Below the pieces are notes generated by a model. That model had not been told where the DNA came from, searched no databases, and worked only from the letters and a program-made list of their open reading frames with translations. The translations under genes were made by a program, and so were the position numbers. 64,000 nt of DNA from an uncultured delta proteobacterium (GTDB taxonomy: Bacteria; Desulfobacterota; Desulfuromonadia; Geobacterales; DSM-12255): assembly GCA_963787125.1 (NCBI GenBank), contig CAWBBV010000006.1, positions 220,725 to 284,724 of the forward strand, given 5' to 3'. Below, in pieces: positions 24,644-46,862 of the stretch (position 1 is its first letter; the number at the start of each line of letters is the position of its first letter).

Positions 24644-24656
24644 ACAAAGGAACCCC

Positions 24657-25391
24657 ATGCTGACACAACCGACCATCGAGAAACTCAAAGTAATGAAGCT
24701 CACCGCTATGGCTCAGGCATTCACTGAGCAGATGCAACGTCCCGACATGGCGTCCCTCACCTTTGAGGAACGCTTTGGTCTGCTTGTAGACCACCAGATG
24801 ACAGAACTGGAGAACCGTAGGATGCAGAATCGACTGAGAACTGCCAAGCTACGCCTGTCGGCATCAATCGAAGACTTGGACTTCAGAGATGCACGAGGTA
24901 TGAACCGGTCACAGGTAATGTCCCTTGCCCAGAATCAGTGGGTGCGAAGCCATCAGAATATCCTCATCACCGGACCAACCGGAGCTGGCAAGAGTTATCT
25001 CGCCTGTGCACTGGCACAGAAGGCGTGCCGGGATGGACACACAACTCTCTACCAGAGACTGCCACGATTGCTTCAGGACATCTCCATTGCCCGCCACGAT
25101 GGTCGCTATCAGAAACTTATGGCTCAGGTGACCAAGTGCGAGGTGCTGGTGCTTGATGACCTGCTCATTTCGCCGCTCTCGCAGGATGACCAGCGGGAAC
25201 TGCTGGAAATCGTCGAGGAACGTTACGACCGGAAAGCGACTATTGTTACCAGTCAGTTACCCATTAAGGCTTGGCACGATGCCATGCAAGACCCAACGCT
25301 GGCTGACGCTATTCTGGATAGGCTGGTGCATAATGCCTACAAGGTCGAGCTGAAGGGTGAATCTATGCGGAAGCGACGGACAATTACTTGA
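24657..25391 (+). CDS. istB: IS21 helper ATPase IstB
   Basis: GPTGAGKS, LVLDD, TSQLP, ADAILDRLVH, GESMR. Confidence 0.95.
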   Translation: MLTQPTIEKLKVMKLTAMAQAFTEQMQRPDMASLTFEERFGLLVDHQMTELENRRMQNRLRTAKLRLSASIEDLDFRDARGMNRSQVMSLAQNQWVRSHQNILITGPTGAGKSYLACALAQKACRDGHTTLYQRLPRLLQDISIARHDGRYQKLMAQVTKCEVLVLDDLLISPLSQDDQRELLEIVEERYDRKATIVTSQLPIKAWHDAMQDPTLADAILDRLVHNAYKVELKGESMRKRRTIT

Positions 25392-27021: not shown

Positions 27022-27561
27022 TTACACTTTCACGCGTCTGATAAATACTGAATCCATCAACCGGCCATAATCACCCTGGGATAACTTTATTTTTCTTCCA
27101 TCAATCATTAATTCACCATTTTCAAGGTTGTTTTCAAGATACATAAAGACTGAAAACATATCCTTTATTTCCTGCATTGCCGGGAGATCGACGCGCGATT
27201 CAGATATCAATCCGGCAATGTCAAAAGCAGCGTGAGCATATATATTGGCTATCTTTGAATCAACTTTACCAGCTGATTCAATGGCTGCCTGGATAACAGG
27301 AACAAACAGCTCATCATGTCCTATTTCAGATAGACGTTTACCACCACTACTTCCCCGCGCCATTTCGCCTTCACCAGCTAGTAGCCATGCTGGGTTTATA
27401 TGTGGGAATGCAGCAAGTATCTTGTTCAGATCGTCAACGTCCGGCGTCCTTTGGGCTCTTTCCCACCGTCCGATAGTATTCAAATGCACCCCTACCTTTT
27501 CGGCAAAAGCATCTTGACGCATAACACCACGAACGTTTTTTATCCTCTCGCCTATACCCAT
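27022..27561 (-). CDS. XRE/Cro-type HTH repressor (Mu c position)
   Basis: IGERIKNVRG..RQDAFAEKVGVH.NTI.RWER...P...INPAWLL.GEG; divergent from ner. Confidence 0.85.
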   Translation of the reverse strand: MGIGERIKNVRGVMRQDAFAEKVGVHLNTIGRWERAQRTPDVDDLNKILAAFPHINPAWLLAGEGEMARGSSGGKRLSEIGHDELFVPVIQAAIESAGKVDSKIANIYAHAAFDIAGLISESRVDLPAMQEIKDMFSVFMYLENNLENGELMIDGRKIKLSQGDYGRLMDSVFIRRVKV

Positions 27562-27765
27562 TTTGTAACCACCAGAAACCCAAAAAGGTTGTTGATCTCA
27601 CGCGGAGAAGTTACAACCATTTCAAAAAAGGTTGTAACTGTTTATATCTACTTGAAACATAACAAGTAATTTATAATATTTGTCACTTAGGCAGAAAACA
27701 ACACTAACAACCCATTTTAATTTTATTTATTGACAATGTACCCGTTTGGGTTTATTTTCACGGGC
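27562..27765. promoter_or_regulatory. Divergent repressor/early promoter-operator region
   Basis: Inverted repeat GTTACAACC...GGTTGTAAC (~27610-27638); TTGACA at 27730; AT-rich. Confidence 0.55.
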
Positions 27766-28068
27766 ATGATGTTGACAACGGACAAATTAAAAGAAACACG
27801 CGTTTTAAGAGCGTGGGTATTGTTCAGGCTCGCAGAGAAGGGATTGACCTTTACTGCCTTGGCAGATCGTTACGGAGCAGGCCGGGAACTCCCCTCAAAA
27901 GTGTTTACCAGTCCCCATTATCCAAAATGGGAAAAGATCATTGCTGACGCAATCCTGATGATGCCTGAAGAGATTTGGCCTGAACGATATAAAGAGCGGG
28001 CCGACCGCAAATCAAAGCAACTACTGCGTAAGGCTAAATCTACAAGAAAAGAGCGGGGGGCGCAATGA
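27766..28068 (+). CDS. ner: Ner/Nlp-family DNA-binding protein
   Basis: KGLTFTALA...YPKWEKIIADAI...PEEIWPERY. Confidence 0.85.
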   Translation: MMLTTDKLKETRVLRAWVLFRLAEKGLTFTALADRYGAGRELPSKVFTSPHYPKWEKIIADAILMMPEEIWPERYKERADRKSKQLLRKAKSTRKERGAQ

Positions 28069-28538
28069 CTAAGAGCAAACAAAGTTTAGTTCCCGACCCG
28101 GCGCAAATGTCCCTATTTGACAGCATAAAACAGGATCAGGCCGAACGGATCGAAAAGAAACCGGGGCGTATGTGTGTAACCCACCGACTGCATGCTGCTT
28201 ACAAGGCGGCGATCAAGGGCGCGTCAAAGTCCCGTGAGCAGATAGCTGATGACATGTCGGAACTGTCATGCCGCAAGGTCACAGTATCCATGATTAACAA
28301 CTGGCTTGCTGACAGCCACCCCCACGAAATGACATGCGACTTGATAGACGCATTCTGCGAAGCAACCGGAGATAACAGGCCGCTCCTAGTACTGACAGAC
28401 ACATACGGCATACACACTATCGAAGCGCCGGACAAAATCCGCGCCCGCCTGCAAAAGCTTGAAGAGCAAAAGAAGGAGCTGGACAAGGAAAAACACCGCT
28501 ACGCCTCATTACTGCATGAATTGGAGCGTAAACCATGA
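28065..28538 (+). CDS. Phage early regulatory protein
   Basis: SREQIADDMSELS...VSMINNWLA...AFCEATG; ATGA-coupled to ner. Confidence 0.65.
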   Translation: MTKSKQSLVPDPAQMSLFDSIKQDQAERIEKKPGRMCVTHRLHAAYKAAIKGASKSREQIADDMSELSCRKVTVSMINNWLADSHPHEMTCDLIDAFCEATGDNRPLLVLTDTYGIHTIEAPDKIRARLQKLEEQKKELDKEKHRYASLLHELERKP

Positions 28539-28726
28539 TGGGATTTCCGGCCATACCTTTCAAACTCTGTGATTTTTGGGCAATCCATAGCGAGACTTGG
28601 AACGGTGACACGCTGACAGTATCCGGCCTACTGCCAGGCAATACAGCAGCGGTTGCCACTTTCATGAGACAAGCAACGTCAAAAGGCAGTTGGCTTGCTG
28701 CTACCCTGGAAGGCCACAAACAATGA
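28535..28726 (+). CDS. Small hypothetical protein
   Basis: ATGA overlaps on both sides. Confidence 0.5.
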   Translation: MMGFPAIPFKLCDFWAIHSETWNGDTLTVSGLLPGNTAAVATFMRQATSKGSWLAATLEGHKQ

Positions 28727-30861
28727 AGCTGTCTCCAGTTCATGCCGAATTTCACGCCGCTGTCTACGAATATGAAAACCGCCTGCCGGTCTATGCCCTC
28801 TCAATTATAGAAATTGCTGAACATCTTGAATTATCACAGCAACTAATTGACAAGCAGCAAAAAAAATTCAACTGGCAACCGACCGGCGAACGTGTTCAAG
28901 GCGGGGGCGATAAGTACAATATCGACTTAATCAGGTTCTACAAGTCAAACGAAAAACACGCCGCCGCCCTGGAGAAGATAAAGAGCAAAATCAGAGATGA
29001 GAAAATAGCCCTTGAGCAAGATCAGGAAGCCGCCGCCATAGCTACCCGCCTTGCTAAGATCAAAGAGCAGATACGCATTGACCGGTTGTCTGAAGCTGAA
29101 GAAGAGATGAATCACGATGACCGTGAATGGCTCTGGAACCAGATGGGGAAGAAAGGCACGAAGCAACAGGACAAGGCTATCATGAGAAGCATGGCCGTGG
29201 CCAAAGTTAAGAGTCTTCTTGCTGCCGGAGAATGGGAGCGGCACGCAATAGAGCAGGTTGCCAAAGAGATTGGAGTTCATGAGCAGAGCGTACGTGGTTG
29301 GGTGAGAAAAACCAAAGATTGCCACCCCTCTGACCGCGCCGCAGTACTGGTAAATCAGATACAAGGCAAAGGTGAAGAGGCTGAATTTACCTTTGAAGCC
29401 TGGGAAGCCTTTAAAAAAGACTATCTCCGCAAGAAGAGCCCTTCTTACTCTTCATGTTACCGCCGCTTGCAAGCCGCCGCCGTTCTTAACGGCTGGACAA
29501 TCCCCACAAAAAAGACGGTTGAAAACTGGATTAAACGCAAAGTTGACGTAATGGTTATCAAATTCAGGCGTGAAGGGATGGAGGCCGTTGAAAAGTGCTT
29601 TCCGGCGATGAAGAGAAACAAAGACATGTTTGACGTAATGCAGGCGGTGAACGGTGACGGCTTCGCCCTGGGGATATGGGCCGATTTCGGCAACGGCACT
29701 ATAGTCAAGCCGATTGTCTGGAGCTGGCAGGATATCCGCTCTTCAAAGGTTCTCGCCTGGAGAATGGATATAAGCGAAAACCGTGAGCTTGTCAGACTGG
29801 CAACTCTTGACCTAATAACCGATTGGGGCATACCTGAATTTATGTATCTGGATAATACGCGGGCGGCTACTTCCAAGCAGATCAGCGGCGGCCTGCCGAA
29901 TCGTTACCGCTTCAAGGTCAAGGATGATGACCCGTTAGGAATCATGCCGCTACTCGGGATTGATCTGAAATACACCCTGCCAGGGCACGGGCAAAGTAAA
30001 CCTGTTGAGAGAGTTCACGGCATAGGCGGTTATCTGGACTTTGACACACTGCCGGTGTTTGAAGGCAGGGGCACAAAAGGCCGTCCCGTGCCGATTTCCG
30101 AAGTTGAAGAGCTGTTTAAAAACTTCGTCAACGAGATCAACGCCCGTCCGGATCGGCGCGGAGATTCAGTCAAAGGCAAAAGCTTTGACCAGGTATTCAG
30201 TGGACTGTATCCGGGGGCAATCATTACCAAGGCAACTGAAAAGCAGCGTAAATTCTGCCTTTCAGTTGCTGAAGTAGTCACGGTAAGCCGCACGAATGCA
30301 GAAATTACCCTGAAAGCTGGCAGGTCTGATGGTGGCGAGAATCGTTACTGGAATAACGAGCTTATAGCACGCATGGGGCAAAAGGTAACAGTACGGTTTG
30401 ACCCGGCGAATCTCCATAGTCCGGTTTATGTCGAGACCATAAGCGGAGTTGAAATCTGTACTGCCGCGCCGTCCATTACCGGAGGCTTTAAAGATGCTGC
30501 CGCCGCCCGTGAACATGCCAGGAACAAGGGCCACTTCAAGAAGCATGTCAAGCTTGCTGCTGAAGCGATTGGCAGAAATGACCTTGCTGAAGCACGGCGC
30601 TATATGGGGACAGTACCGGAGCCGGAGAAACCGCGAGCGAAAGTAACCCGGCTTGCTGCCAATGTACCGACAAAGGGCAAGGCTACCACGGATCAGGATA
30701 GCGGAGCTGTTGAGACACCTGCCTGTAAGACGCTACAGGAGTTGTTCCCGATTAAGAAAGTGGTGAACGGTAGTGATTGCGAACATGACGCGGAAAGCGT
30801 TGCTGCATTGTGGCATAAGGGCGCTGCAAAGCTTTATGGGAAGAAAAGTGTGCTGTCATAA
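28723..30861 (+). CDS. MuA-like DDE transposase
   Basis: FKKDYLR...SCYRRL; NGDG (D), YLDNTRA (D), QSKPVER (E); VRFDP C-terminal domain. Confidence 0.92.
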   Translation: MKLSPVHAEFHAAVYEYENRLPVYALSIIEIAEHLELSQQLIDKQQKKFNWQPTGERVQGGGDKYNIDLIRFYKSNEKHAAALEKIKSKIRDEKIALEQDQEAAAIATRLAKIKEQIRIDRLSEAEEEMNHDDREWLWNQMGKKGTKQQDKAIMRSMAVAKVKSLLAAGEWERHAIEQVAKEIGVHEQSVRGWVRKTKDCHPSDRAAVLVNQIQGKGEEAEFTFEAWEAFKKDYLRKKSPSYSSCYRRLQAAAVLNGWTIPTKKTVENWIKRKVDVMVIKFRREGMEAVEKCFPAMKRNKDMFDVMQAVNGDGFALGIWADFGNGTIVKPIVWSWQDIRSSKVLAWRMDISENRELVRLATLDLITDWGIPEFMYLDNTRAATSKQISGGLPNRYRFKVKDDDPLGIMPLLGIDLKYTLPGHGQSKPVERVHGIGGYLDFDTLPVFEGRGTKGRPVPISEVEELFKNFVNEINARPDRRGDSVKGKSFDQVFSGLYPGAIITKATEKQRKFCLSVAEVVTVSRTNAEITLKAGRSDGGENRYWNNELIARMGQKVTVRFDPANLHSPVYVETISGVEICTAAPSITGGFKDAAAAREHARNKGHFKKHVKLAAEAIGRNDLAEARRYMGTVPEPEKPRAKVTRLAANVPTKGKATTDQDSGAVETPACKTLQELFPIKKVVNGSDCEHDAESVAALWHKGAAKLYGKKSVLS

Positions 30862-30936
30862 AGAAAAAGCCGTGCTGTAACACGGCTCTTCACTCCCCCA
30901 AGGGGGAAATTTCCAGATCAGGAGGAACGATACCAG

Positions 30937-31896
30937 ATGAGTGAAAATGTTGCAAGAATGTTTGAAGAATTATCGGATGCAAGCGAACTGAGAGTCCGCG
31001 TAAGCGACATTATCAGCGAAACCGGCACGACACAGGGGAAGATTGCCAAGGAAACCGGCATTTCTCCTACCGCCCTTTCACAGTGGCTGCAAGAGAAGTA
31101 CAAGGGAGACAATGCCGAGGTTGAAAGCAAGCTCCTGAAATGGCTTGCAGCCAGGGAGCGCCGCACAGTTGCCGGTGAGACCATGCCCGCCGCTGCTGAT
31201 TATGTGGCGACACCTGCCGGAGAGCGTATCAAGGGGGTTTTGAGCTACGCACAGGCCGCCGCTGATTTGGCTGTCATTTATGGTGGGGCCGGAGTGGGCA
31301 AAACCCGCGCAATCAAGAGCTATGCCGCTTCAAGTCCTAATGTGTGGGTCGCTACCATGCGACCGGATACCGCTTGTGTTGCTTCGTGCCTGGAAGAGAT
31401 CGGCGAGTCCGTAGGGCTGAAAATGGCGAGCCGCGCCGCGCGCCAATCGCGGGATTTGACTCACAAATTTGCAGGAACCGGCGGGCTGTTGGTAGTGGAT
31501 GAAGCACAACACCTGAACATTGCCGCCATCGAAGCAATTCGTTCAATTTATGACGTTACCGGAATCGGCCTTGTCTTTTGCGGGAATGAATCGGTTTACG
31601 TCAGGATGACAGGAGGGAGCCGGGCCGCCACCTTTGCACAACTCTTCAGCCGGATCGGCAAGCGGTTAAGGTTGTCACAACCAAGTCAGGCAGATGTAAC
31701 CGCCCTTGCTGACGCTTTTGGAGTGAACGGCACGGCAGAGCGTCAGGCGCTTATAGAGATCAGTCAGAGGCCGGGGGCGCTTCGTTCTGTGGTTAAGGTA
31801 ATTCGCTTTGCTGCTGTTATGGCTGCTGGCAATGGTGAAGGTGTCAATCTTCATTATATTTCGACGGCCTGGAAAGAGTTGGGGGGGGAAGCATGA
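30937..31896 (+). CDS. MuB-like AAA ATPase
   Basis: N-terminal HTH; GGAGVGKT; VVDEAQHL; AQLFSRIG; PGALRSV. Confidence 0.93.
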   Translation: MSENVARMFEELSDASELRVRVSDIISETGTTQGKIAKETGISPTALSQWLQEKYKGDNAEVESKLLKWLAARERRTVAGETMPAAADYVATPAGERIKGVLSYAQAAADLAVIYGGAGVGKTRAIKSYAASSPNVWVATMRPDTACVASCLEEIGESVGLKMASRAARQSRDLTHKFAGTGGLLVVDEAQHLNIAAIEAIRSIYDVTGIGLVFCGNESVYVRMTGGSRAATFAQLFSRIGKRLRLSQPSQADVTALADAFGVNGTAERQALIEISQRPGALRSVVKVIRFAAVMAAGNGEGVNLHYISTAWKELGGEA

Positions 31897-32141
31897 CGTT
31901 ACCAGCTGGGACCATACCACCGATTAAAATGGGAATTGAACAAGAATTAACCATAAGCCAAGTTGATTTAATAATGGAACTTGAAGCCTGTAGAGCAATG
32001 ACTTTGTTTATCTCGGATGCTGTCGGCCTCATTTTGACAGAACATGGAAACTATAATGAAATATATCCTGTGCCATACGGCGCGGAGGTTTGCTTAACTT
32101 CACTGTCAGATAAAATTCATCAGCTCAGCATGAGAGGATAG
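31893..32141 (+). CDS. Hypothetical protein, C-terminus clipped by an IS insertion
   Basis: Removing the IS gives ...QLSMRVKGGIA*, ATGA-coupled to the ORF at 33983. Confidence 0.6.
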   Translation: MTLPAGTIPPIKMGIEQELTISQVDLIMELEACRAMTLFISDAVGLILTEHGNYNEIYPVPYGAEVCLTSLSDKIHQLSMRG

Positions 32142-33958
32142 TGTCAAAAGTTTCATGAAAAGCCGGGATATTGAAATGGAAAGTACTCGAAAGTAAACGA
32201 TGCCCTTCATCTGCATCTTTTCCGAGTCTGTCCAGACTGTGACTTCACTACTTTGTGGTTACTGGCTTGAATTTTGGGCAAGCCACTCTGTGACCAGGCA
32301 CGTGAGATAGTTGGTCAGATTAAAACAACAATCAGTAAATTGATCTTTGAAGACGGGAAGTCAGGCAGCTAGCGAGAGGATCTTGGTCCATCTAGCCTGA
32401 ATGGTCGGCAGTGCCTTCAACTCCTGCAAAGGCACCGGTGGTAGATATTTTAGCGACATGTGAGGCCTGAGGAAGTTGTAGTGGGTCACAAACAGCGTAG
32501 TTAAAGATACCGCACCGTTTGTGCTGTTGAATCCTGCTGCTGGCCTTACATGATACTTGAAGGTTCTGTTGAGCCGCTCAACGAGCTGCTTGAAGGATCT
32601 GTACTCTTCGGACTCGGCATCAAGGTTTTGGAGGCCAATAACCTTTTTGTGCTGAATCGTCTGGGAATCATCAGTCTGGGCATTGATGAAATGAATGCCA
32701 GCTGGATAAGAAGGGTTTCCGTCGCTGACAAGGGTTATTTGCTGATCGGCAGAAGCAGTCCTGATGGCTTCATTCATAGCGATAATGGCAGGCTGAGTGC
32801 CCCTGTTATCGGCCACGTGATAGGCGGAGATTTTCAGGTTCTTTGCCGAGATAAAAAAGAAGACATAATGGTGCTTGCCCAGGATCTTGATGTAGGTCTC
32901 ATCACCTGCAGAGATATTATCGATATGGCCTTTATGCTTGAGATTGAATCGGTGGCAGTGCCAGGCGGCGCCAGCGGCATAATTGAGAACTGTCTGATGA
33001 GAAACCTTGATACAGAAGACTTCGCGCAGGATTTGAGCAGTTTTTCTGGCCGGAACGGCGAATGAAACATAGAAAGTCAGAATCAGGCCAAGCACGTTTT
33101 CGCTGTTATGGATTCTCGCCAGTTCGACCGGCGGTTTGTCCGGAGAAGAGAGTTCCAACTCTTCCGGTTTGTAGTGATATTCGCGGTACTGGTAGTTGAT
33201 TTTGAACTGAGAACTTTTCTTTTTCATCAGCTCTTTCTCGGCTTTATTGAGCTTGGCAAGCGCCTGGATACGGTGAGGACAGTTATCATTTGGGCACTTG
33301 TGGATGGTCACTTCCTTTTGCGACTTCCACCTGAAGAGAGCCAGCCCGCAATGGGGACAGAAGAGCTTTGACTTTCTGTTGGTTCTGAAGCGCTGTTGGA
33401 GTTGGAAGAGTTGAGAGCAAACCTTGCAGAGAACTTGAGAGCGCTTCTTTCCGTCGTTGAAGTAGAGATAAGTATTTGGCGCTCCGCAGCAGGGACAGGT
33501 GACATGCACTGGAACCGGTGATGAACCCGCCCGGAGCTTGACCGGAGCAAGAGACTTTCCGTGAAGTGTTTCGTACTCAATCAGGAGTTGCCGGTAGTCT
33601 TTTTGATCGAGGTCTTTTTTTTAAACTTTGGGGGCTCAGTCAGTGGCGGCTTGGGATCGACAATAAAGTTTCTGTAGTTCGGATGTTTCTCTTTGAAATC
33701 GTCCTTTGGCTTAACTTCAGGATTACGATTTTCGAGGACATCTGACAACCCGACGACGATCTGTTCAATCTCGGTCTTTGTAAACTTGGAGCAAATCCAG
33801 ACAACAAACCGGGCAGTTTTGGATAGGTACGACATGAGCTAGCCCTCCATAACTGGCATTCTTAACCAGAATCACGGGGGGAGGCAAGACTTTGATTGGT
33901 AATGCATTGAAATTAGAACTGAAAAGCAAAAAGACATGTCAAGAAGTTTGACACAACG
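32137..33958 (-). mobile_element. IS element with a DDE (IS6/IS240-like) transposase
   Basis: Ends GATAGTGTCAAA / TTTGACACAACG; flanking direct repeat CATGAGAG (32129-36, 33959-66; 9 bp if the G is included). Confidence 0.85.
32361..33835 (-). CDS. DDE transposase encoded in two frames (33835-33581 and ~33614-32361), joined by a -1 shift at A AAA AAG
   Basis: Zinc-finger CPCCG/CKVC/CPHC; GDETYIKI, VSDGNPSY, QLVERLNRTFK; the -1 frame is open from the A8 run at 33615-33622. Confidence 0.8.
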
Positions 33959-33982
33959 CATGAGAGTTAAGGGAGGCATAGC

Positions 33983-34111
33983 ATGAAAACAATCAAGCGA
34001 TTTATTGAAGAGCAGATAGCAAAAGTCAGATTGATGGCCGCCCGTCGCAGTGCCATGCAAGGCGCAACCGCCGCCGCTTGCCGCATGGCCTTGAACGGCT
34101 GCCGGTTGTGA
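33983..34111 (+). CDS. Small hypothetical protein (42 aa)
   Basis: GGGAGG RBS; ATG...TGA; below the ORF-track size cutoff. Confidence 0.4.
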   Translation: MKTIKRFIEEQIAKVRLMAARRSAMQGATAAACRMALNGCRL

Positions 34112-34186
34112 ATATTATGAAAGAATTAAAGATAAGGCTGCGACGAATCTTGAGAGAAGAGCAACAAGGGAAAAAGGGGGCACACC

Positions 34187-34678
34187 ATGGCACAAAAAGC
34201 ACACAAGCAGGCCGGGCCACCGATAAGCGCCGCACAGATCAAGAAGCTTCACACCCTCAAGACCGCGCTGAAGTTTGACAATGAAACCTATCGGGCCGCC
34301 CTGGACAATGCCGCCGGGGTTACTTCTTCCAAGGATTTGACCATACAGCAGGCCGCTGCACTTATAGACGACTGGCAGACAAAGGCCACCGCTGCCGGGG
34401 TCTGGAAGACACGTCAACCGAAAGCGAAAAAGTTTGATGACTTAGAGAACCGCCGTGGAGTGGTAGCCATGGCAACCGTTCCACAAATGCGAATGATTGA
34501 AGCTATATGGGGTGAAGTCAGCAGAGCCACAGAACCGGAGGCAAGAGCCACCGGTCTTCGGCACTTCATCAAACGGATTGCCAAGGTCGATAGTCTTCGC
34601 TTCTTGGATAGAGAAGGAGCAAGCGCCGTGATTAACGCATTAACCGCTATGCAGAAGAGTAAGGCATCTCATAGTTAA
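34187..34678 (+). CDS. gemA: GemA/DUF1018-family Mu-like protein
   Basis: QIKKLH.LK..L..D.ETYRA.L....GV.SSKDLT...Q...I.AIW...L..FIKR...VINAL..M. Confidence 0.85.
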   Translation: MAQKAHKQAGPPISAAQIKKLHTLKTALKFDNETYRAALDNAAGVTSSKDLTIQQAAALIDDWQTKATAAGVWKTRQPKAKKFDDLENRRGVVAMATVPQMRMIEAIWGEVSRATEPEARATGLRHFIKRIAKVDSLRFLDREGASAVINALTAMQKSKASHS

Positions 34679-35027
34679 ACGATGTACGCGCCTCATTATG
34701 TCGAGATAGGTGAACCATAGACATAAAGAGGGTTTCCGGGGTGGGACCCGGTAAACGGGTATGGTTCACCAGGGGCAATGCCTGAGAGACCCCAGCTTCG
34801 CCTCAAGCTGCTAATCAGGCAATAATAAGTTGAATGTCTTGGGAAAGGGTGGAAATCGCAAAAATGACCGTGACGCGCTTTTTACCGTAGTTGGCGCATG
34901 AAGGGCAACGGTTTTATCCGAACGCCGAACGTGGGGAAATTTAAAGATGGTTTAAACGCGGTTTTGGGAATGGGCGCACCTGTAAAAAACACGAAACACG
35001 AAACAACACAAAAATGGAGGTAATCGC

Positions 35028-35201
35028 ATGTTCAGTTTTGAAGAGTACGTAATGTTTCAGGCACTAAGTGATTCCATGAAAAAAGCGCTTGCAGAAAAGT
35101 TTGCAGCAAAACGAATACCTTCTGAAGAGGCCAAAATTATTAAACAGATGGGAACCTCTTATGTAGATGCATGGGCACAAAAGCAGATTGACACTATGTA
35201 A
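35028..35201 (+). CDS. Small hypothetical protein (57 aa)
   Basis: GGAGGT RBS; MFSFEEYVMFQALSDSMKK...; stop abuts the hammerhead ribozyme. Confidence 0.6.
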   Translation: MFSFEEYVMFQALSDSMKKALAEKFAAKRIPSEEAKIIKQMGTSYVDAWAQKQIDTM

Positions 35202-35202
35202 A

Positions 35203-35272
35203 CGCGAAACCGGCGGGCAACATGCCGCCGGTCTGCCGGGAATGGCCGCCCGGCACTGATGAGCGAGGCCGT
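35203..35272 (+). ncRNA. Type II hammerhead ribozyme with pseudoknot
   Basis: CGC-GAAA-C CGGCGG(loop)CCGCCG GUC^ UGCCGGG(AAUGGCCG)CCCGGCA CUGAUGA GCG A GGCCGU; all core nucleotides and stems I-III present; predicted cleavage after C35233. Confidence 0.9.
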
Positions 35273-35285
35273 AAGGGGAATCAAT

Positions 35286-35513
35286 ATGGGCGAATTATGG
35301 AAAGAGCAAGTGACTGTATCTGAAGGAATATGGCTTAACGTTCTTCAACACGCGACACAAAGCGAAATTGAAACCTTTGTGTCGCTCCTGGAGAAGAACG
35401 GACTGAAAATCATAGAAGTCGAGAAGTACAACCGTGTGATGGAATTGGTTGATCGTTCAATAGAAGAAATTGAGGCGCTGGAGTACCGGATCAAGACTCT
35501 TACAGAGCAATAA
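35286..35513 (+). CDS. Hypothetical protein
   Basis: AAGGGG RBS right after the ribozyme; ATG at 35286. Confidence 0.6.
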   Translation: MGELWKEQVTVSEGIWLNVLQHATQSEIETFVSLLEKNGLKIIEVEKYNRVMELVDRSIEEIEALEYRIKTLTEQ

Positions 35514-35539
35514 CCCGTATAAGCAGGGGAGAAACAACT

Positions 35540-36292
35540 GTGCCGTTTCAAACTGCATTAATACAAGCCACTGCCCTAAGCCCACATGTTGATTATGATT
35601 CATGGCTATCAGCAAATACCGCCTATTGCCAGCGCCACCGCTGTAGCCTGACAATTGCCGATTGCGACAAACAAAAGGCAGAAAGCGCCGGTCATTTTAG
35701 TGATTTACGCTGTCAAGGCTGCGGCGGTCTGGATAATCAGCCGGAAGTTACTGACCATATTGGCACTTTTGGGGTAGTGACTCCGCGTCGGTTGCAGCTC
35801 GTCAAGCAGCAATCCGTTGAAATTATACTGCCGGTTCTTACCGAAAAAGAAGAGTTGCCTCCGGAGACCGCCGCGCAGATCAGCGAGCAGGCAACGGCGG
35901 AAACCTGCCTTGACCTGGAATGTTTGCATAACCTGGACTGTTGCGAAAGCTCCTTTGACCTTGCCGCAATCAGCGCACTAACCGGGGATAATGGCGAGCT
36001 TGCAAAAGAGCTGCAAATTCTCTTTATGGGTGAAGATGAAGAGGTTGAGACCAAAGAAGAGATAGCCGCTCTATACAAAAAGACAAGTAATCGGGCCAGA
36101 ATAATAAAACTCTTCGCAGTGTATCAAGGCCGCTGCATCCGTTGTGGTGGATACATGGATAACACCAGGGAGGAAGGAACTGACGAAAAATGGGATGATG
36201 ATGTTTATCGCTGCCTTGCTTGTGGATGGCGCACAAGCCCGGCCTATGCCTGGAATCGCGAGAACCCTGCTGTAGCAGGATGGAGGGGCTAA
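35540..36292 (+). CDS. Hypothetical Cys-rich protein with C-terminal zinc ribbon
   Basis: C..H.C, C..C, CIRCGG...CLACGW. Confidence 0.65.
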   Translation: MPFQTALIQATALSPHVDYDSWLSANTAYCQRHRCSLTIADCDKQKAESAGHFSDLRCQGCGGLDNQPEVTDHIGTFGVVTPRRLQLVKQQSVEIILPVLTEKEELPPETAAQISEQATAETCLDLECLHNLDCCESSFDLAAISALTGDNGELAKELQILFMGEDEEVETKEEIAALYKKTSNRARIIKLFAVYQGRCIRCGGYMDNTREEGTDEKWDDDVYRCLACGWRTSPAYAWNRENPAVAGWRG

Positions 36293-36293
36293 G

Positions 36294-36698
36294 ATGGTAG
36301 ACCAACAGGATTCAACCAGTAAACAGCATGAAGAGGGCCGGGACAATTTACAGCTGGGAATAATGGTAATCATTATCAGAGTTCTGACCGGCAAGGGAGT
36401 TAATAACGCCGCTGCTGTCAGGATTGCTATGGATATTATCAAGGAGCTTACAGCTACTTACGGAGGACATTCGATATATCTTCCAAAACAGGATGCAGTA
36501 AAGCATGCCGAAAAAGCCGCCTCAATACTGGCAGAGTTCAATGGTAAGAATCACGCCGCTCTTGCAGAGAAGCATGAGCTTTCAAGTCGGCAGATTTACA
36601 ATATCGTCGGACGGAAAAAAGACAAGAAACCGGAAAAGCCGGATGTTGCCGGATTAGCAGCACTTCTAAAAAGCAGACAAGGAACGGGGCATTCATGA
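36294..36698 (+). CDS. mor: Mor-family transcription activator
   Basis: YGGHSIYLPK...I.AEFNGKNHAALAEKHELSSRQIYNIV. Confidence 0.88.
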   Translation: MVDQQDSTSKQHEEGRDNLQLGIMVIIIRVLTGKGVNNAAAVRIAMDIIKELTATYGGHSIYLPKQDAVKHAEKAASILAEFNGKNHAALAEKHELSSRQIYNIVGRKKDKKPEKPDVAGLAALLKSRQGTGHS

Positions 36699-36916
36699 TG
36701 GATAAAGTTAAAGGCTTGACTGCTGAGGACTTAAGAGTTTGTGAAGTTATGGGAATGAACCCGCACACTCTCATTGAGGCGTACGGAGCGGAAATAGCCT
36801 GCAACTCTGCGCCGTCTTCGCTTGAAAAGATGACGCCGCAAGCTGTCAATACAGCAAAGCGACAGCTTTCTGTAGCCATTGGGCCGTCAATATGGATACC
36901 GCTGACAGCAAGATAA
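36695..36916 (+). CDS. Small hypothetical protein
   Basis: ATGA overlap with mor; LTAEDLRVCEVMGM resembles the C-terminal motif of Mu-like protease/scaffold proteins (weak). Confidence 0.5.
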   Translation: MMDKVKGLTAEDLRVCEVMGMNPHTLIEAYGAEIACNSAPSSLEKMTPQAVNTAKRQLSVAIGPSIWIPLTAR

Positions 36917-36934
36917 ATTTGCACGGGAGGCATT

Positions 36935-38791
36935 ATGGCAGACATGAAACTTTTTATCGAATTAATGGCACGTTCAACCGGCCTTAAACGCGAACTTAAC
37001 GACTCCGAAAGAGGATTCAAGCAGTTTGGCAATGTTGTCGGAAAGGAGATGGCGAGAATCGGTCAGTTTTCCGGCTCACTCCAGGGGAAGCTTGCCGGTT
37101 TGGGGGTGACAATAGGAGTTTTACAGCAGTTTAGAATATCTGCTCAGCTTGATAAAGATCTTACCCAGATAGGCCAAACTGCTGGAGCTGGCTCTAAGAT
37201 GGTTACGCTGTTACGTTCTGACCTTTTTCGCATGGGCAAAGATAGCGGTCAAGACCTTGAGAGCCTGAAAAACGGGTTTGATTCACTGGTTCAATCAGGT
37301 CTGAATATGCGTGAAGCAACTGCTACACTGGATGGAATCAACATTGCTATGGCTGTCACCGGTGCAAAAGCTGAAACTCTTTCCAGTGCGCTGACGGTTG
37401 GCGGGACACACTTCGGCTTTGATTTAGCTAAGCCGGGGCAGGCGCTGACAATGTTGGATAAAATGACTGTTGCAGGGAGACTTGGAAATGCTGAGCTTGG
37501 TACGCTGTCAGCTACCTTTTCTCGTGTAGGTGTCAGCGCAAAAGCAGCTGGTATGTCTTATGACAAGACGCTGGCTTTTATCGAAGCGCTGTCTTTGGCT
37601 GAGAAAAACCCCGAGCGACTGGGAACGCTGGCAACCAGTTCCCTCCGGGTGTTTACCGACGGGCGTTATATGATGAAGGCTCAGCAGGGGCTGGGGATGA
37701 GCAACCTGTTTTTTGATAAAAAAGGCGCACGCCGTGATGTCATGGATGTTTTTACAGATATCCAAAAGAAATATAAGACGCTAAAAACTGACCGTGAACG
37801 GGCTGGCTTCATTCATAAAGCCTTTGGTGAAATGGACACTGAGACGAAAACCGGTGTTCAGCTGATGTTGGATGGAAAGAGCCTTGATAAGGCGCGTGAA
37901 TTTCTTGGGATTATTGATAAGGCCGGGGGCACACTAAAAAAAGATTTCAATGCAGCGACCATGAATCTTATTACACAAGGCGGCCGACTTAAGAACACCA
38001 TGCGTGATGCTGCTGATAGCTTCATCCAGCCAATTAATAAAGTAATGGCCGAATGGTTACAATTCATGCTGGACAAGAAAGAGGACGGCGGCTTAGGGCT
38101 ATCTGGCAAGCAGATTGCTGGGGGCGCGGCAGGCATAATCGGCGGAACCTATGTTCTTTCCAAGGTCGGAAATAAAATCCTTGGGGATTGGGCAAAGAAA
38201 AAGGTCGGTGGGTTGAGCGGCAGCACCGCTGTGGGGGTGGCTGAAGGCAAGATCCTTCAGGCCGCCGCCGGCGTTACCCCTGTATATGTTACCAACGCGG
38301 CTGACATAGCCGGTTCGTTTAATGTCCTGCAACAGGGGGCCGGTGCTGTCGCAATGTCATCACCGGCTGTTGCAGCAGTTCCGGCACTTTTCACGGGTGG
38401 CATTGGTTATGCCTCAATGGAAACAGGGAAATATTTGGCACGGGAAGAAGCTAGCTGGCGTAGCAACGCTGACTTGGCAAGAATACGTTCTCAGCACATG
38501 GTCATGGGGGGAGGGGGGAATTCATTCCAGGTGCAGGCTATTGACGAAGAAATAGGAAAGCGTTGGAGATCAACCTTCGACGATTCCCGCAAAATATCTC
38601 CTTTTGATAGAGAGGGTGCTGGTCATCGTCCGGCAAGAGCAAATACAAATAATAACATTAATGTTGAAGTGCACTTTGATGAACTCGCACGGGCATTCAC
38701 TAAAGTCAACAGCATGGATACAGGTGTTAACGTAAAGAGTGGTGGCAGAGGCGATTTCTTTGAAGCTCTAACCAGTACAAAGAGCATGTAA
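36935..38791 (+). CDS. Phage tail tape measure protein (TP901-type core)
   Basis: Ala/Gly/Leu-rich helical protein; LDKMTVAGRLGNAEL..L...F.RVG; GVTPVYVTN motif. Confidence 0.82.
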   Translation: MADMKLFIELMARSTGLKRELNDSERGFKQFGNVVGKEMARIGQFSGSLQGKLAGLGVTIGVLQQFRISAQLDKDLTQIGQTAGAGSKMVTLLRSDLFRMGKDSGQDLESLKNGFDSLVQSGLNMREATATLDGINIAMAVTGAKAETLSSALTVGGTHFGFDLAKPGQALTMLDKMTVAGRLGNAELGTLSATFSRVGVSAKAAGMSYDKTLAFIEALSLAEKNPERLGTLATSSLRVFTDGRYMMKAQQGLGMSNLFFDKKGARRDVMDVFTDIQKKYKTLKTDRERAGFIHKAFGEMDTETKTGVQLMLDGKSLDKAREFLGIIDKAGGTLKKDFNAATMNLITQGGRLKNTMRDAADSFIQPINKVMAEWLQFMLDKKEDGGLGLSGKQIAGGAAGIIGGTYVLSKVGNKILGDWAKKKVGGLSGSTAVGVAEGKILQAAAGVTPVYVTNAADIAGSFNVLQQGAGAVAMSSPAVAAVPALFTGGIGYASMETGKYLAREEASWRSNADLARIRSQHMVMGGGGNSFQVQAIDEEIGKRWRSTFDDSRKISPFDREGAGHRPARANTNNNINVEVHFDELARAFTKVNSMDTGVNVKSGGRGDFFEALTSTKSM

Positions 38792-38854
38792 CTCAAGCAG
38801 GGCTGCATTACACTGGTCTTTGCAGCTCAAACTAATAATCCGGAGGCTATAATT

Positions 38855-39550
38855 ATGTCAGTAATCACAAGTAAGAAAGCGTTAAAGGAAGTCCTTGAAT
38901 GTCAAGTTTCTCTTGAAGGGGTAAACACGGATAAGGTGAACATGAAAGAGGCAATTCTGTTGCAGCAGCAAAAGCTTGATTCTGCTGAGGTATGCAAAAA
39001 GAAACTTGCTCTGTTAATGGAAAAGCGCCGGGGCTTATTGGCTGACGCCGCCTTGGGGAATGGCAACAATATAGAGCTTGCCGCGCTTAATGCCGAAATT
39101 GAAGTAAACAAGGCGAATACGGTTGATAGCGACTTGTTGATTGTTGCTGAAACCATAGCGGGATTAACCGCAAAACTTAACGCTGTATCCACTGTCCAGG
39201 AAGAACTGCAACGCAAGAAATCAGCACTTATTGCTACGCTACTGTTGGCCGAGGCTGAAGAACTGGGAGCGGTTTACATTGAGGATATGAACCGCCTTGC
39301 TGCTACTCACCGTCAACTATTGGTTAATAATGCCCTCTTGAAGCAGGCTGGTGGTGCCGGGATAGTTCCGGAATCAAGTGTCAGAATTGATGTCCCGCTT
39401 TTCAGACTTGAAGCTCACAAGGGGCTTGAAATTGGAGATATCCCCGGTAAAGTCAGGATCAACAGCCAGGCGCAGTATTCCGATACACTTATTTCTGCTG
39501 AGATAGCCGAGAGTAAGCAGCGGTTAAATCAATGGGGGGTTTGTTGGTAG
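38855..39550 (+). CDS. Hypothetical coiled-coil protein
   Basis: GGAGG RBS; heptad-rich 231-aa ORF. Confidence 0.65.
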   Translation: MSVITSKKALKEVLECQVSLEGVNTDKVNMKEAILLQQQKLDSAEVCKKKLALLMEKRRGLLADAALGNGNNIELAALNAEIEVNKANTVDSDLLIVAETIAGLTAKLNAVSTVQEELQRKKSALIATLLLAEAEELGAVYIEDMNRLAATHRQLLVNNALLKQAGGAGIVPESSVRIDVPLFRLEAHKGLEIGDIPGKVRINSQAQYSDTLISAEIAESKQRLNQWGVCW

Positions 39551-39560
39551 CAGGTAAGTT

Positions 39561-39597
39561 ATAAAGGCCGTTTACAGACGATGTAAGCGGCCTTTAT
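39561..39597. terminator. Terminator-like hairpin
   Basis: ATAAAGGCCGTTTACA-GACGA-TGTAAGCGGCCTTTAT. Confidence 0.6.
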
Positions 39598-39619
39598 CAT
39601 ATGTTAACAGGGGGTAGAT

Positions 39620-40123
39620 ATGTCGGGGAAACTGGATAAGATTATAGAGATTATCGGTATTGAGCTTGCTGCTAAACTCTGTCATGACTTCGCAGGCAAA
39701 CAGATACGCATAAAGAAATTAGAGTCAAAAATAGGCACATTCCAGGCGGTTATTGACAGTATAGGGATTAATGCCGCCAACCTGTTGCAAAAGGAAATAA
39801 CCGGACTTGTATATATTCCGAACTTAACAGCTGAGCTTGGCAAGCAGAGACGACAAGAAATTATTGAAAATTATCGGGGTGAAAGGATTGAGGATTATGC
39901 TCTTATAGTAGGGCTGACCTCCCGCCGGGTATATCAATTATTTAAGGAGACAGGGGTTAAACTCCCAGATAAGCCACTACGAAAGAAGCTGATTATTGAT
40001 GACTACAAGGGTGAGACGGCAAGAGAGTATGCGGATAAACACGGGATTAATATAAGGTCTGCCCGAGCAAGGTTGAAGTCAAACGGTATAATACCTTGTA
40101 GCGGGTTGCGACAGGTAAAATGA
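39620..40123 (+). CDS. Second Mor/C-like regulator with duplicated modules
   Basis: IIGIELAAKLCHDFAGKQIRI and IGINAANLLQKEITGLVYIP, plus two Y.GE...YA...G...R HTH-like units. Confidence 0.6.
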   Translation: MSGKLDKIIEIIGIELAAKLCHDFAGKQIRIKKLESKIGTFQAVIDSIGINAANLLQKEITGLVYIPNLTAELGKQRRQEIIENYRGERIEDYALIVGLTSRRVYQLFKETGVKLPDKPLRKKLIIDDYKGETAREYADKHGINIRSARARLKSNGIIPCSGLRQVK

Positions 40124-40139
40124 CCAGGTCAAATAAATC

Positions 40140-41756
40140 TTGCTGCTTTGTGCTGGGGGTAACTTTTTGACTATTAAATATGCTGGCACGTTGGCCCTGA
40201 TTCAGGGGGAGCCGGAATTTAACCGGGTTAGAGCCATGAAGCGCTTTTTGCTCCTGAAGGATTTTGAAGATAATTTCCTACAGAAGTATAAATTAGAGTC
40301 ATGCCGAAAAGTTTCTCTTACAACTGCGCGGAAAGCTTATTGTGAGCAAAGATCCCTTTCATATACGACATTTCTGCATTGGTCGGTAGCCTATCGAAAA
40401 CGTGGCATCAAGGGGCTTTTACCGAAATACGGGAGGACACTGAATCCATCAAAGCGCCCTATCCGGTATCGAAAACAAAAGCTGATGGCAACAATAGCCA
40501 TAGACTTAAACAACCCCCTGAAATGCCTGGAGACGTTGCAGCGAATTATTCAGTGGTGTCGGAAGATTGAACCGGAAGTTAAAAGCAGGACGCTTTCTCT
40601 GTTAAAAAGTTTCTTTGAGGATTCAGTTGCCGATCATCCTTTATCCTTGCGTATCCCTCTTACAGCTGAGGAAATTAAAGCTTTAAAGCGGTATAAAGCC
40701 GGGTTACATAAGAAATATAGTCCAAAAGCGGAAGCCATTCTTTTAATAAATGAAGGCCGTATGCTCCTAGAGGTAATGAACGCAACCAATGTATCGAAAC
40801 GCACAATTTACCTTTGGATGCGTAACTTTAATAAAGACCGTCTCGACTCTATAAAGGTCCGGATCAACGCACCCGAAAGGGAAAGAGTAAAGACAGAGCG
40901 GCAAACGAGAGTTATCGACATCATCCACAAGATGCCCTCGCTTTATGGGATCAATAGAACAACCTGGACATATGGGGCAATTGCTGAGGCGTATGAGAAA
41001 GAATATGGAACCGCTATCTCAAAGGATAAGGTTCAAGGCGTCATTCACAATACCAATTACTGTTGGCGACATGCCAGAAGGGTCTTGACCAGCCCAGATC
41101 CTGAATACAAGACAAAGGTGGAAAGGCTACTGGATGCCCTACAAGGGCTTAAAGAAGGCGAGCGATTCTTTTTCATAGACGAGGTAGGGCCGTACCAGGT
41201 GAAGAAATACGGCGGCAGAATACTGATGCCAAAAGACCAAATTGAAACGCTGCCAGAGTTCCAGAAGAGCCGAGGTAAGATCCAGTTTGTAGCCGCACTG
41301 GAGGCAGTCACAAATCAAATGTTATGGATGTTCACCCCTGACAAGAGCGCCCTTTCCGTGATTGGCTTGATAGAGAAACTGGCTATTGACTATGCTGTTT
41401 CTCCGGCCATATTCATGACGTGGGACGCTATATCAGTACATGGTTCAAAGGTCGTCATGGAATGGATTGCGGCGCACAACGAGGCAGACAAGGGCCCACG
41501 TATCGAGGTTGTTCCTTTGCCCTCAAAGTCGCAGTTCCTGAACGTCATCGAGTCGGTCTTTGGAGGGATGAAAAAGGCAGTGATCTGTAACAGTGACTAT
41601 GCCAGTCTTAACTAAATGCAAGAGGCTATAGCACGCCATTTTGAGGACAGGAACCAGTATTACCTGGAGAATCCCAAACGGGCCGGAAACAAAATATGGG
41701 ACAAGCAAGCTTTCGACTTTGACAAGCTCATAGGTGGGCTTTTCAAGAAGATGTAA
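40140..41756 (+). pseudogene. IS630/Tc1-like DDE transposase with long N-terminal extension and an in-frame TAA at 41613-41615
   Basis: FFFIDE.GP, WDAISVH, LPSKSQFLNVIESVF; the frame continues after the stop as MQEAIARHFEDRNQYYLENPKRAGNKIW. Confidence 0.75.
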
Positions 41757-41971
41757 ACGCCATTTAAATCAGTATTAAGGAGCATGATAGAAGAGATTAA
41801 ACGCCAGGACCGGCACAAGCATAGTAGGAGTAAGAACGATATTAACTACGTTTAAGGGGGTAAAGGCCGCTGACTCACTAGAGTTGTGCCTTTTTTGTAT
41901 TTAGTTGAAATCAAACATATTTTATTATATTTGTGGTTTGCTTAAATTATAAAAAAGGGTTTCGCGCTACA

Positions 41972-44620
41972 TTTTGCTCCAGCGCGGCCACGCGCGTGAG
42001 AAACTCCTCGGAGAAAATATCAAGCCTCGCATCTTCCAGTCCAGCCGCCGCAAAGAGGTCGATCACTTCCCCGGCGTTCACGGCTCCGCCGATAACTTGC
42101 CGAACTGCTGCGTTGATATCGGAATTCCCCGCCGCAGGCGCGCCCGTTCCGCGTTCGTCCGCCAGCCGCTTGCGAATCATCGCCTGAATTCGCTGAAAAA
42201 AAGCCAGATGCGGGGTAATAGCTTCTGCTTCGGAAAGCGGCACAACGAGGGCAAAGGCCATCGACAGTTCCTTCACCATCGCCCGAAACCTTTTCCAGCC
42301 ATCGTCCTGAGCGAAGACATGATTCGCGGCATCGGCATAAACCTTCAGTACCGACGTCGGCGCGGCATTCAGTGCCAGGTCATAATCAAAGTCATGGAAG
42401 AAAGCCTGCAATTTCTCGAAAGCGCCATTCATTGCCGGTACGGCTTCGTCCTGAACTTTCTTAACGGCATCACCCCGCCCGCCAGCTTGCGTATAGGTCG
42501 CCAGGGCGTCGGCCAGTTGGTCCGCCAACCCCAGCAAATCCACCACCAACCCGCCAGGCTTTTCGCCGTAAACCCGGTTCACTCTGGCAATGGCCTGCAT
42601 CAGGCTATGCCCAGCCAGCGCCTTGTCCAAATACATCGTGTGCATAGGCGGGCAGTCGAAACCGGTCAACCACATGTCGCAAACGATTACCAGCCGGAGA
42701 TCGCTGGCCGGATCCTTATATCGTTCAGCCAGCCGCTTGCGCGCCGCTTTGGTTCTCCCGTGGTAGCGAATCGGTTCAATGAGTGGTTCGATTCTCTTCT
42801 GGTAGGCATCATCACTCTCTCCTCGCCGCTGTGGCGGAATGCCAGCATCCATCACTACCTTGACGAAACCGAGGTTGTCATCGTCAGAATGCCATTCCGG
42901 ACGGAGTGCCACTATCTTCGCGTACAGTTCCATGCAAATTTCGCGACTCATGGTCACGACCATCGCCTTCCCTTCCATCGCCTCCCCTGCGCTTTTCCCA
43001 GTGCTCCGCGATGAACTCAGCCTCGCGCTCGATTCGCTCCGGAGCCCCCACCAACGCCTCCAGCGGCACTCGCACCGATTCGTCCAGGTCCTCACCCGTG
43101 TCCGACGCCTTGGCTGCCGAGTCCAATTCGGCCTCGGCGACTGCGGCGCCCGCTTCGTTCACCAGCAGCTTGATAATCCGCGACTCGTAGTAGATAGGCT
43201 TGGTAGCGCCGTCCTCCACCGCCTGCCGAATATCATAAATATCGGCGTATTCACCGAACACGCGCGGCGTGCTCCGGTCGTCGCGGTCCAGCGGCGTACC
43301 CGTGAAACCCACGAACGTTGCGTTAGGCAGCGCCTCGCGCATCCAGCGCGCGCCGCCTTCAGTAAAGCCGTACTGGCTACGGTGCGCTTCGTCGGCCATC
43401 ACCACCACATTTGCCCGTTCACTGATGACGCCGTGCTCTTCGGTGAACTTGTAGATAGTTGTGAAGATCACCCCGCCCGAGGCGCGATCCAACAATTCCT
43501 GTAGATGCGCCCGGCTCTCCGCCTGCAGGGGGGCTTGCCGTAGCAGCGCCCGCCCGCCTGCGAAGGTGCTGAAAAGCTGGTCATCCAGGTCGTTGCGATC
43601 CGTCACCATGACGATAGTCGGGTTGGCCATTGCCGATTCGCGAACCAGTGCCCCCGCCAGCATCAGCATCGTGAGGCTTTTGCCCGAACCTTGCGTGTGC
43701 CATACCACGCCGCCCTTGCCGGCCTCCGTCGTCGTGTTCACACCCGCCGGAGGCTTCAACGCCGCCAACACATGTGCACGGGTTTCGCGCACGGCGCGGA
43801 ACTGATGATAGCCCGCCACTTTCTTTGACACGTTCCCGCGTTCGTCTTCCTCGAACACCACGCAGGTGCGCAGATAGTCCAGCAGTGCCGACGGCGCGAA
43901 CAGCCCATGGATCAGAGCGTCCAGCGTTGGATCGCCGCCAGTCGCCGGACGCCAGGGCATGAAGCGTTGCCGCCCGCTCGTGATCGAACCAACCCGCGTC
44001 AGCAGACCATCACTCGCCACCAACATCATGTTTGCTACAAAGAGGTCCGGGCTGACGCGCATGTACCGCCCCAATTGATCAATCGCCTTCCACAGGTCCG
44101 CCGTCTCGTCTGTCGGGTCCTTCAGCTCAATCACTACCAGCGGCAGGCCGTTCAGGTACACGGTTAAATCTGGGTAGATCGGTTTTCCGTTAGCAGTAAG
44201 GACTCTCAGCTGACGCACTATCAGGAAGTCGTTGTTGGCCGGGTTGTCGAAATCCACCAACCGCGCCCGCCCACCCCGGTTTTCGCCCGTCGAGGTGTCG
44301 CGGTATTCCACCTCCACACCGTCAGTCAGCTGGCCATACAACCAGCGGTTGTTCTCGATCAGTGTCGGGTGCGGTGGACGCTGAACAGTTCGTACAACCA
44401 GTTCGATGGTGTCAGGTGGCAGCGCGGGATTTAATTTGCGGACAGCTGAAGTAAGACGCTTCGCAAGCAGGACGGTATCCGGCCCGGTTCTTTCGCCCGC
44501 GTCGTCCACCTCAATACCGCTCAGGTTGGCAAACCCATGTCCACCGAAAGAACTGGCGGCACCATATTCCACTGTTGCTTCACTGACCCTGCACTCGTGA
44601 AGATTCATTGAACGATCCAT
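41972..44620 (-). pseudogene. hsdR: Type I restriction subunit HsdR, 5' part (interrupted by the Mu-like element; also +1 G at ~42984-42987)
   Basis: [54 protein letters not shown]. Confidence 0.93.
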
Positions 44621-46443: not shown

Positions 46444-46862
46444 TCCCAGGTGGCTCCGGTCATAACTTGATAGAGGCCGATGGCATCATCGATAAAGTCT
46501 CCGACAATCAAAAGCGTTTCCGCCGCTTTCTCTCCGCTGTAATCATGGGCAGTGCTGGTTCGGGCGTCCGCGTATTTCAGCCACTGTTCCACGGAGGATA
46601 CGAACAAATCATTCTGTCCGGCCAGCTTCAGAATCGGTTTCGGGCTATTGGGGACATCAGCCAAACCGGTTTCTTCAATGAGGTACCGTTTCAGGTCTTT
46701 CCACAGGGTGTCATAGCAGGTCTCAAAGCGCTGGATAACGGACTCGGCAATCCCCTCACGGTCAAGATCGGTGAGTTCAGGACGATCCTGAGCAAAATTG
46801 TAATTTGCAAATTGCAGCTCCAGATGTTTGAGCGATTTTTGAAGTTTATCGTAATCGATCAT
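46440..46862 (-). CDS. HEPN-family protein (HI0074-like nucleotidyltransferase substrate-binding protein)
   Basis: [21 protein letters not shown] (Rx4H-xY); overlaps hsdM and MNT-hsdS by 4 nt each. Confidence 0.85.

Follow-up and report, generated by a model that had tools for sequence, protein, structure and literature searches.

A probable type II hammerhead ribozyme among the early genes of a Mu-like element

A short gap between two small open reading frames of a Mu-like element contains what looks like a complete hammerhead ribozyme. Is this motif a genuine self-cleaving RNA, and what would cleavage do to the message that carries it? In bacteria, hammerhead and twister ribozymes are concentrated near particular genes, the strongest associations being with Mu-like phage genes (PMC10085705, citing Roth 2014 and Weinberg 2015), and often lie within 6 kb of certain gene classes (PMC5737381). 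The pistol, hatchet and twister-sister classes, found through hammerhead and twister ribozymes, share this enrichment, and the reason for the link with Mu-like genes is described as still unknown (PMC10085705). We analysed the motif in its window, the 64-kb stretch of DNA in which it was noticed, and in related genomes. Our reading, to which we give a probability of roughly 0.85, is that positions 35202-35274 are a genuine self-cleaving ribozyme of the type II hammerhead class, carried by the rightward early transcript of the element. The family match, core, fold, covariation and conserved intercistronic position in related elements all point to this.

Gene context, core and fold

The element and its surroundings in the window are organised as follows.

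23102-25391, plus strand: IS21-type pair, IstA-like with Mu-transposase C-terminal domain, and IstB
27022-27561, minus strand: HTH repressor-like gene
27730-28068, plus strand: Ner-like gene (HTH_35)
28690-30861, plus strand: Mu transposase A (MuA) gene (PF02914, PF09039, PF09299)
30937-31896, plus strand: MuB-type ATPase gene (PF09077, 5.3e-25; AAA_22)
32136-33958, minus strand: 1.82-kb insertion sequence (IS) with a 382-aa DDE transposase and an 84-aa ORF (Pfam DDE_Tnp_IS240/rve_3)
34187-34678, plus strand: GemA-family gene (PF06252, 1.5e-23; phrog_286)
35028-35201, plus strand: 57-aa ORF (ORF call), its stop codon TAA at 35199-35201 abutting the ribozyme
35202-35274, plus strand: type II hammerhead ribozyme, whole match (RF02276)
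35273-35279, plus strand: Shine-Dalgarno-like AAGGGGA, read from the sequence, preceding the ATG at 35286
35286-35513, plus strand: 75-aa ORF with ATG at 35286 (ORF call)
35540-36292, plus strand: 250-aa gene, function unknown, conserved in the element family (tblastn: L017, L022, L027, L158, L159)
36294-36698, plus strand: Mor-family transcription activator gene (PF08765, 5.7e-19; phrog_532)
36935-38791, plus strand: tape-measure-like gene, 618 aa (PF10145, 1.3e-23; phrog_973)
39620-40123, plus strand: second Mor-like gene, among the last genes of the element
40140-41615, plus strand: terminal DDE_3 transposase-like gene, last gene of the element
41947-43095, minus strand: hsdR C-terminal domains
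42884-44620, minus strand: hsdR N-terminal part (HSDR_N/SWI2_SNF2)

The ribozyme occupies the gap between the 57-aa and 75-aa ORFs in the early region, with MuA, MuB and GemA upstream on the same strand and Mor 1 kb downstream. The sequence-only reading had placed the motif in a Mu-like element, between two small ORFs and upstream of mor and a tape-measure gene, and the Pfam and PHROG assignments agree. It had also noted that the motif starts right after a stop codon and ends at the next ribosome-binding site, which is where the TAA and the AAGGGGA indeed lie. A genome-contig search with the 250-aa neighbour gave no relative, and querying the phage collection with GemA returned four distant records with less than 33% identity.

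Covariance-model scanning (Rfam 15) matched Hammerhead_II (RF02276) at 35202-35274 on the plus strand with 49.9 bits, above the gathering score of 37, so that the Infernal check proposed with the sequence-only reading gave a positive result. The E value of 2.9e-7 refers to the 64-kb window searched against 4227 families, and the family was matched over its full length (model positions 1-66 of 66). In the cmscan alignment two bases of the stem II 3' strand are treated as an insert and one pair is flagged; read in its natural register, the stem consists of three Watson-Crick pairs. A permissive Rfam scan of 15000-64000 gave no second ribozyme, the next match having an E value of 0.007 and falling far under its cut-off. 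RF02276 matched none of 14 control genomes. The parts of the ribozyme are listed below.

35203-35205, plus strand: stem II 3' strand CGC (11.3-11.1), pairing with 35263-35265 (sequence, parse, MFE fold)
35206-35208, plus strand: core G12 A13 A14 (sequence, Rfam alignment)
35209-35232, plus strand: stem III hairpin from A15.1 to U16.1, 8 bp with an 8-nt loop (parse, MFE fold)
35233, plus strand: C17, with predicted cleavage between C35233 and U35234 (consensus-core position; site inferred from the family)
35234-35255, plus strand: stem I hairpin, 7 bp, loop AAUGGCCG (parse, MFE fold)
35242-35247, plus strand: pseudoknot strand AUGGCC in loop I, potential pairing with 35267-35272
35256-35262, plus strand: core C3 U4 G5 A6 U7 G8 A9, CUGAUGA (sequence, Rfam alignment)
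35263-35265, plus strand: stem II 5' strand GCG (10.1-10.3) (parse, MFE fold)
35267-35272, plus strand: pseudoknot strand GGCCGU in the 3' tail, potential pairing with 35242-35247

Judged by the core acceptance rules given in the methods of PMC3088659, the sequence has every required feature: C3 U4 G5 A6 N7 G8 A9, G12 A13 A14, the A15.1-U16.1 pair and H17. The GAA together with A15.1 spans 35206-35209, and the GUC that ends in C17 (C35233) spans 35231-35233. All pairs adjacent to the core are intact (U35234-A35255, C35205-G35263 and A35209-U35232). Stem III is formed by ACCGGCGG/CCGCCGGU, 8 bp between 35209-35216 and 35225-35232, and stem I by UGCCGGG/CCCGGCA between 35234-35240 and 35249-35255. 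Stem II is open and stems I and III are closed. A single A separates the stem II 5' strand from the GGCCGU tail, and the predicted pseudoknot AUGGCC/GGCCGU has 6 bp including one G.U pair, a length that 3 of 500 shuffled tails reach. For the core, the stems and both pseudoknot strands, the coordinates originally read from the letters proved correct throughout.

The unconstrained MFE fold of the 73 nt at 35202-35274 is the hammerhead, with 3, 8 and 7 bp in stems II, III and I at -32.7 kcal/mol, and the same fold is obtained inside a 181-nt context. The energy is unremarkable when compared with shuffles (z -0.96; 33 of 200 fold equally well), as the sequence is 70% G+C. Since the fold energy is ordinary for such a composition, support for the ribozyme comes from the core motif and from covariation, not from stability. 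One might ask whether the match has arisen by chance, or whether the hairpins are those of an ordinary terminator or repeat, given the high G+C content and the ease with which shuffled sequences fold. We consider this scarcely credible in view of the E value, the empty control genomes and the covariation of homologues described below. Moreover, neither hairpin is followed by a T-run, and a terminator scan gave no site at 35200-35280.

The AUG within the CUGAUGA core (35259-35261) shares the reading frame of the downstream ORF, and no stop codon separates the two. Three of the four syntenic copies checked show this (the window, L017 and L022; L158 does not). No ribosome-binding site precedes the AUG, and its frame is probably a coincidence.

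Covariation and copies in related elements

Homologues were collected with RF02276 from two places in the same genome, from 101 relatives (matches in 12 genomes, 11 of them above cut-off) and from 151 sampled genomes of the class (matches in 15, of which 13 above cut-off). Of 25 extracted sequences, a core is recognisable in 23; the pair that was dropped (L034 and L037, G107), both sub-threshold, lack one. L014, which is cut by a contig end, was excluded from all counts, and L032, with its long stem III insert, from the count on the MAFFT alignment. On that 24-sequence alignment RNAalifold recovered stem I only, plus three spurious core pairs. Stem III is misaligned there because its length varies, and the stems were therefore counted from core-anchored positions, giving 18 pairs (3 in stem II, 7 in stem III and 8 in stem I).

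The covariation among homologues by which the sequence-only reading was to stand or fall is present. In the core-anchored count, 390 of 414 cells in the 23 sequences hold standard pairs; shuffles average 284 (sd 6.2), and none of 1000 reached as high. Each of positions 3-7 of stem III shows four or five standard pair types. In the 24-sequence alignment 90.6% of cells are paired, as against 24-43% with slid partners, and changes on both sides occur in 9 of 15 pairs overall and in 7 of 8 stem I pairs. A pseudoknot of at least 4 bp is possible in 22 of the 23 sequences. Its four core pairs (UGGC/GCCA) are nearly invariant in the 24 aligned kin, so that covariation argues neither for nor against the pseudoknot. 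The extra C-G pair in the pseudoknot of the window subtype, seen in 3 of 24 sequences, involves changes on both strands.

The ribozyme also keeps company with Mu-type genes. Scoring Mu transposase domains, AAA_22/MuB, DUF3164, Gam, GemA, Mor and gp27, we found a Mu-like context at all 14 examined RF02276 places (of 15 in relatives), which re-finds, within one bacterial class, the association reported in PMC10085705. Thirteen of these places lie between the B-type ATPase gene and Mor or late genes, and one at the far end of its element. Conversely, 3 of 12 MuB-anchored loci in the species collection have RF02276 at gathering score within 9 kb. The ribozyme is thus frequent in such Mu-like elements, not universal.

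Other hammerheads were encountered along the way. The same genome has a second type II hammerhead (G000:C1:215145-215225, L001/L016; 53.9 bits). It belongs to another Mu-like prophage, where a DUF3164 gene and a GemA-like gene flank it, and has U instead of C at position 17. Three type II hammerheads (L028, L038 and L035) lie within 2.9 kb in one kin genome (G114:C1:3426104-3428968) and two within 6 kb in another (G149:C7:93820-99868), a tandem arrangement of the kind described in PMC3088659. A 29-nt pattern of the window subtype had no matches in viral contigs. A 15-nt pattern had at least 118; among the listed loci L039-L118 only L046 has a hammerhead fold, and the others were taken as chance matches.

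Elements syntenic with that of the window were defined by tblastn with window proteins. The five relatives found in this way are the following, with identities to the window.

L017 (= L157, kin genome G012): MuA 91%, MuB 97%; junction hammerhead canonical, 63.1 bits
L022 (G082): MuB 52%; junction core CUGAUGG (A9G), 31.7 bits
L027 (G079): different A/B module, GemA 47%, DDE_3 51%; C.A mismatch at 15.2/16.2, 31.6 bits
L158: MuB 65%; hammerhead-like CCGAUGA (U4C) at about 10415-10490, seen by eye, with no Rfam match at gathering score
L159: MuB 54%; no junction hammerhead found

The junction copy is therefore canonical in two of the six elements (window and L017), defective in three and absent from one, and this suggests that selection for cleavage at the junction is weak or intermittent. 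The position is well kept: in all four called copies (window, L017, L022 and L027) the motif starts 0-3 nt past the upstream stop codon, and in three of these four the next ribosome-binding site follows the hammerhead tail directly. A homologue of the 57-aa ORF (42% identity) stands directly 5' of the hammerhead in L017, and homologues of the 75-aa ORF come after it in L017 and L022. Further canonical hammerheads are present downstream in L158 (50.1 bits) and after the DDE_3 gene in L022 (53.1 bits).

Comparison with L017 also revealed a sharp mosaic. The left module (orf157, MuA and MuB) is 86-97% identical to that of the window and the part from orf57 rightwards 42-60%, which indicates a recombination joint between MuB and orf57, upstream of the ribozyme. 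The sister element in G012 is adjoined by a group II intron domain match (L157 1611-1685, 42.5 bits), and a reverse-transcriptase ORF lies beside it at L017 11941-13371.

The defective copies bear on whether the structure might work without cutting, by insulating the two cistrons, blocking exonucleases or modulating the next ribosome-binding site, its core being incidental. The copies with A9G, U4C or the stem III mismatch do retain both hairpins at the junction, and the pseudoknot tail adjoins the Shine-Dalgarno sequence. Variant cores in prophage contexts, on the other hand, often still cleave slowly (PMC3088659). Furthermore, the 13 core nucleotides are conserved throughout the 23 sequences, which come from many genera, whereas the stems are free to vary, and such a pattern is the signature of selection for catalysis. 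A structure that serves without cleavage is accordingly very improbable, and a self-cleaving RNA remains the preferred reading.

Predicted cleavage and the state of the window copy

In hammerhead chemistry the 2'-OH of C17, with the help of G12 and G8, attacks the neighbouring phosphate, so that one product ends in a 2',3'-cyclic phosphate and the other begins with a 5'-OH. In the transcribed RNA of the window, hairpins I and III, both closed, and the open stem II of 3 bp would surround the canonical core, and pairing of loop I with the 3' tail in the 6-bp pseudoknot would hold this fold in shape. Internal phosphoester transfer would then break the chain between C35233 and U35234 and give the two end groups named above. 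We infer that cleavage would take place in the cell as well, where the ribozyme would probably cut the long polycistronic early message in two. This matches the published reading for prophage hammerheads (PMC3088659).

The upstream piece, carrying GemA and the 57-aa ORF, would close with the 8-bp hairpin of stem III. The downstream piece, with the 75-aa ORF, the 250-aa ORF, Mor and the tape-measure-like gene, would start 52 nt before the ATG at 35286 with the 7-bp stem I hairpin, its first base being paired. Because in the type II topology the scissile bond is flanked by two closed hairpins, both new RNA ends are predicted to be structured. Such ends should hinder exonucleases, and cleavage may uncouple the upstream and downstream halves in stability or translation. 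With two RNase E/G-type proteins and one RNase J-type protein encoded in the genome, the direction of the effect on the Mor half is not predictable from sequence.

The condition of the element raises the further possibility that the motif could still cut and is an idle relic in a decaying copy. The IS at 32136-33958 sits antisense in the early operon, between MuB and GemA and 1.24 kb upstream of the ribozyme, and may keep transcription from the early promoter from reaching the ribozyme in this copy. The window contains no head, lysis or tail genes other than the tape-measure-like ORF, the element is flanked by IS21 on one side and by a type I restriction-modification system and housekeeping genes downstream, and three of six syntenic copies have defects in or next to the core. 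However, in the window copy the core is complete, all three stems are kept, the pseudoknot is extended and the flanking ORFs are intact. Thirteen copies of the IS are present in the genome, including a pair that stands nearly side by side on the same contig, and with 99.5-100% identity they look like a recent burst; the insertion is then recent as well, and the intactness of the ribozyme reflects earlier selection. On balance an idle relic is improbable, though clearly less so than a structure that never cuts, and we retain the reading of a ribozyme that would cleave the early transcript.

Some features of the flanks may be recorded here. The IS21-type pair is separated from the Mu-like element, on its upstream side, by about 1 kb. 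Downstream, the R subunit of the type I restriction system is encoded by two overlapping ORFs (41947-44620, minus strand), which suggests a frameshift, and a nucleotidyltransferase pair lies between the split R subunit and hsdM (45529-48532). The ORF at 41947-43095, considered as a second IS copy of the same length, was rejected, as it is the hsdR fragment.

Published hammerheads and the compact element family

The first natural type II hammerheads were described by Perreault et al. (2011; PMC3088659), who reported hundreds of bacterial hammerheads near prophage genes, often flanking genes of varying identity. Most type II examples in that study share a pseudoknot in which at least four pairs join loop I to the nucleotides that follow stem II. 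Hammerheads arranged in tandem cleaved both in vitro and in E. coli, and the suggested role is the processing of long phage RNAs into shorter mRNAs. The window ribozyme resembles these type II hammerheads in its core, its topology, a loop I/3'-tail pseudoknot of at least 4 bp and its polycistronic prophage setting. It differs from them only in detail. Its pseudoknot is the 6-bp AUGGCC/GGCCGU, where the commonest version is UGGC/GCCA. The third pair of its stem II is C-G, whereas most kin have U-A or a mismatch there.

Two published arrangements come close to that of the window (PMC3088659). The clustered prophage hammerheads on either side of single genes (Agrobacterium tumefaciens ardA, Clostridium scindens and Azorhizobium caulinodans) are likewise intercistronic and on the coding strand, whereas a single hammerhead was detected in the window element. 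HHphage of the haloviruses HF1 and HF2 also comes just before a start codon, on a polycistronic early RNA, and its mapped 5' end is within 3 nt of the cleavage site. HHphage belongs to an archaeal virus and has a variant core, whereas the core of the window ribozyme is canonical. Class, pseudoknot, prophage setting and Mu-like enrichment are thus all already in print (PMC3088659; PMC10085705), and the window contributes one further well-formed example, conserved in synteny, to a class and a setting that are both known.

The compact virion-less element family is more unusual than its ribozyme. Together with L017/L157, L022, L027, L158 and L159, the element at 27022-41615 forms a family of compact Mu-like elements with the gene order repressor, ner, A, B, (gemA), hammerhead, orf75, orf250, mor and DDE_3. 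A tape-measure-like gene is only sometimes present after mor, and the DDE_3 gene is IS630-like. A DDE_3 homologue, 48-62% identical to that of the window, is the last element-type gene matched in five of the six members, L158 giving no match. Host genes follow the element directly in L022 and L027, and elements with both ends visible are about 12-15 kb long. Apart from the tape-measure-like gene, the family showed no genes for head, tail or lysis. A search for terminal inverted repeats of the window element found none, and its ends were not located. The family elements may be transposon-like or satellite-like derivatives of Mu.

A bolder proposal would be that the hammerhead is a fixed part of these virion-less elements in Geobacteraceae-type genomes, where it would mark the boundary between the transposition and Mor modules. 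We hold this to be doubtful. The wider value of the locus lies only in its possible use as a test bed, one gene junction being occupied by intact copies in some elements and by natural mutants in others. If the proposal were true, the canonical copies (window and L017) and those mutated by A9G, U4C or the stem III mismatch would be a natural test series for why ribozymes accompany Mu-like genes, a question called unanswered in PMC10085705.
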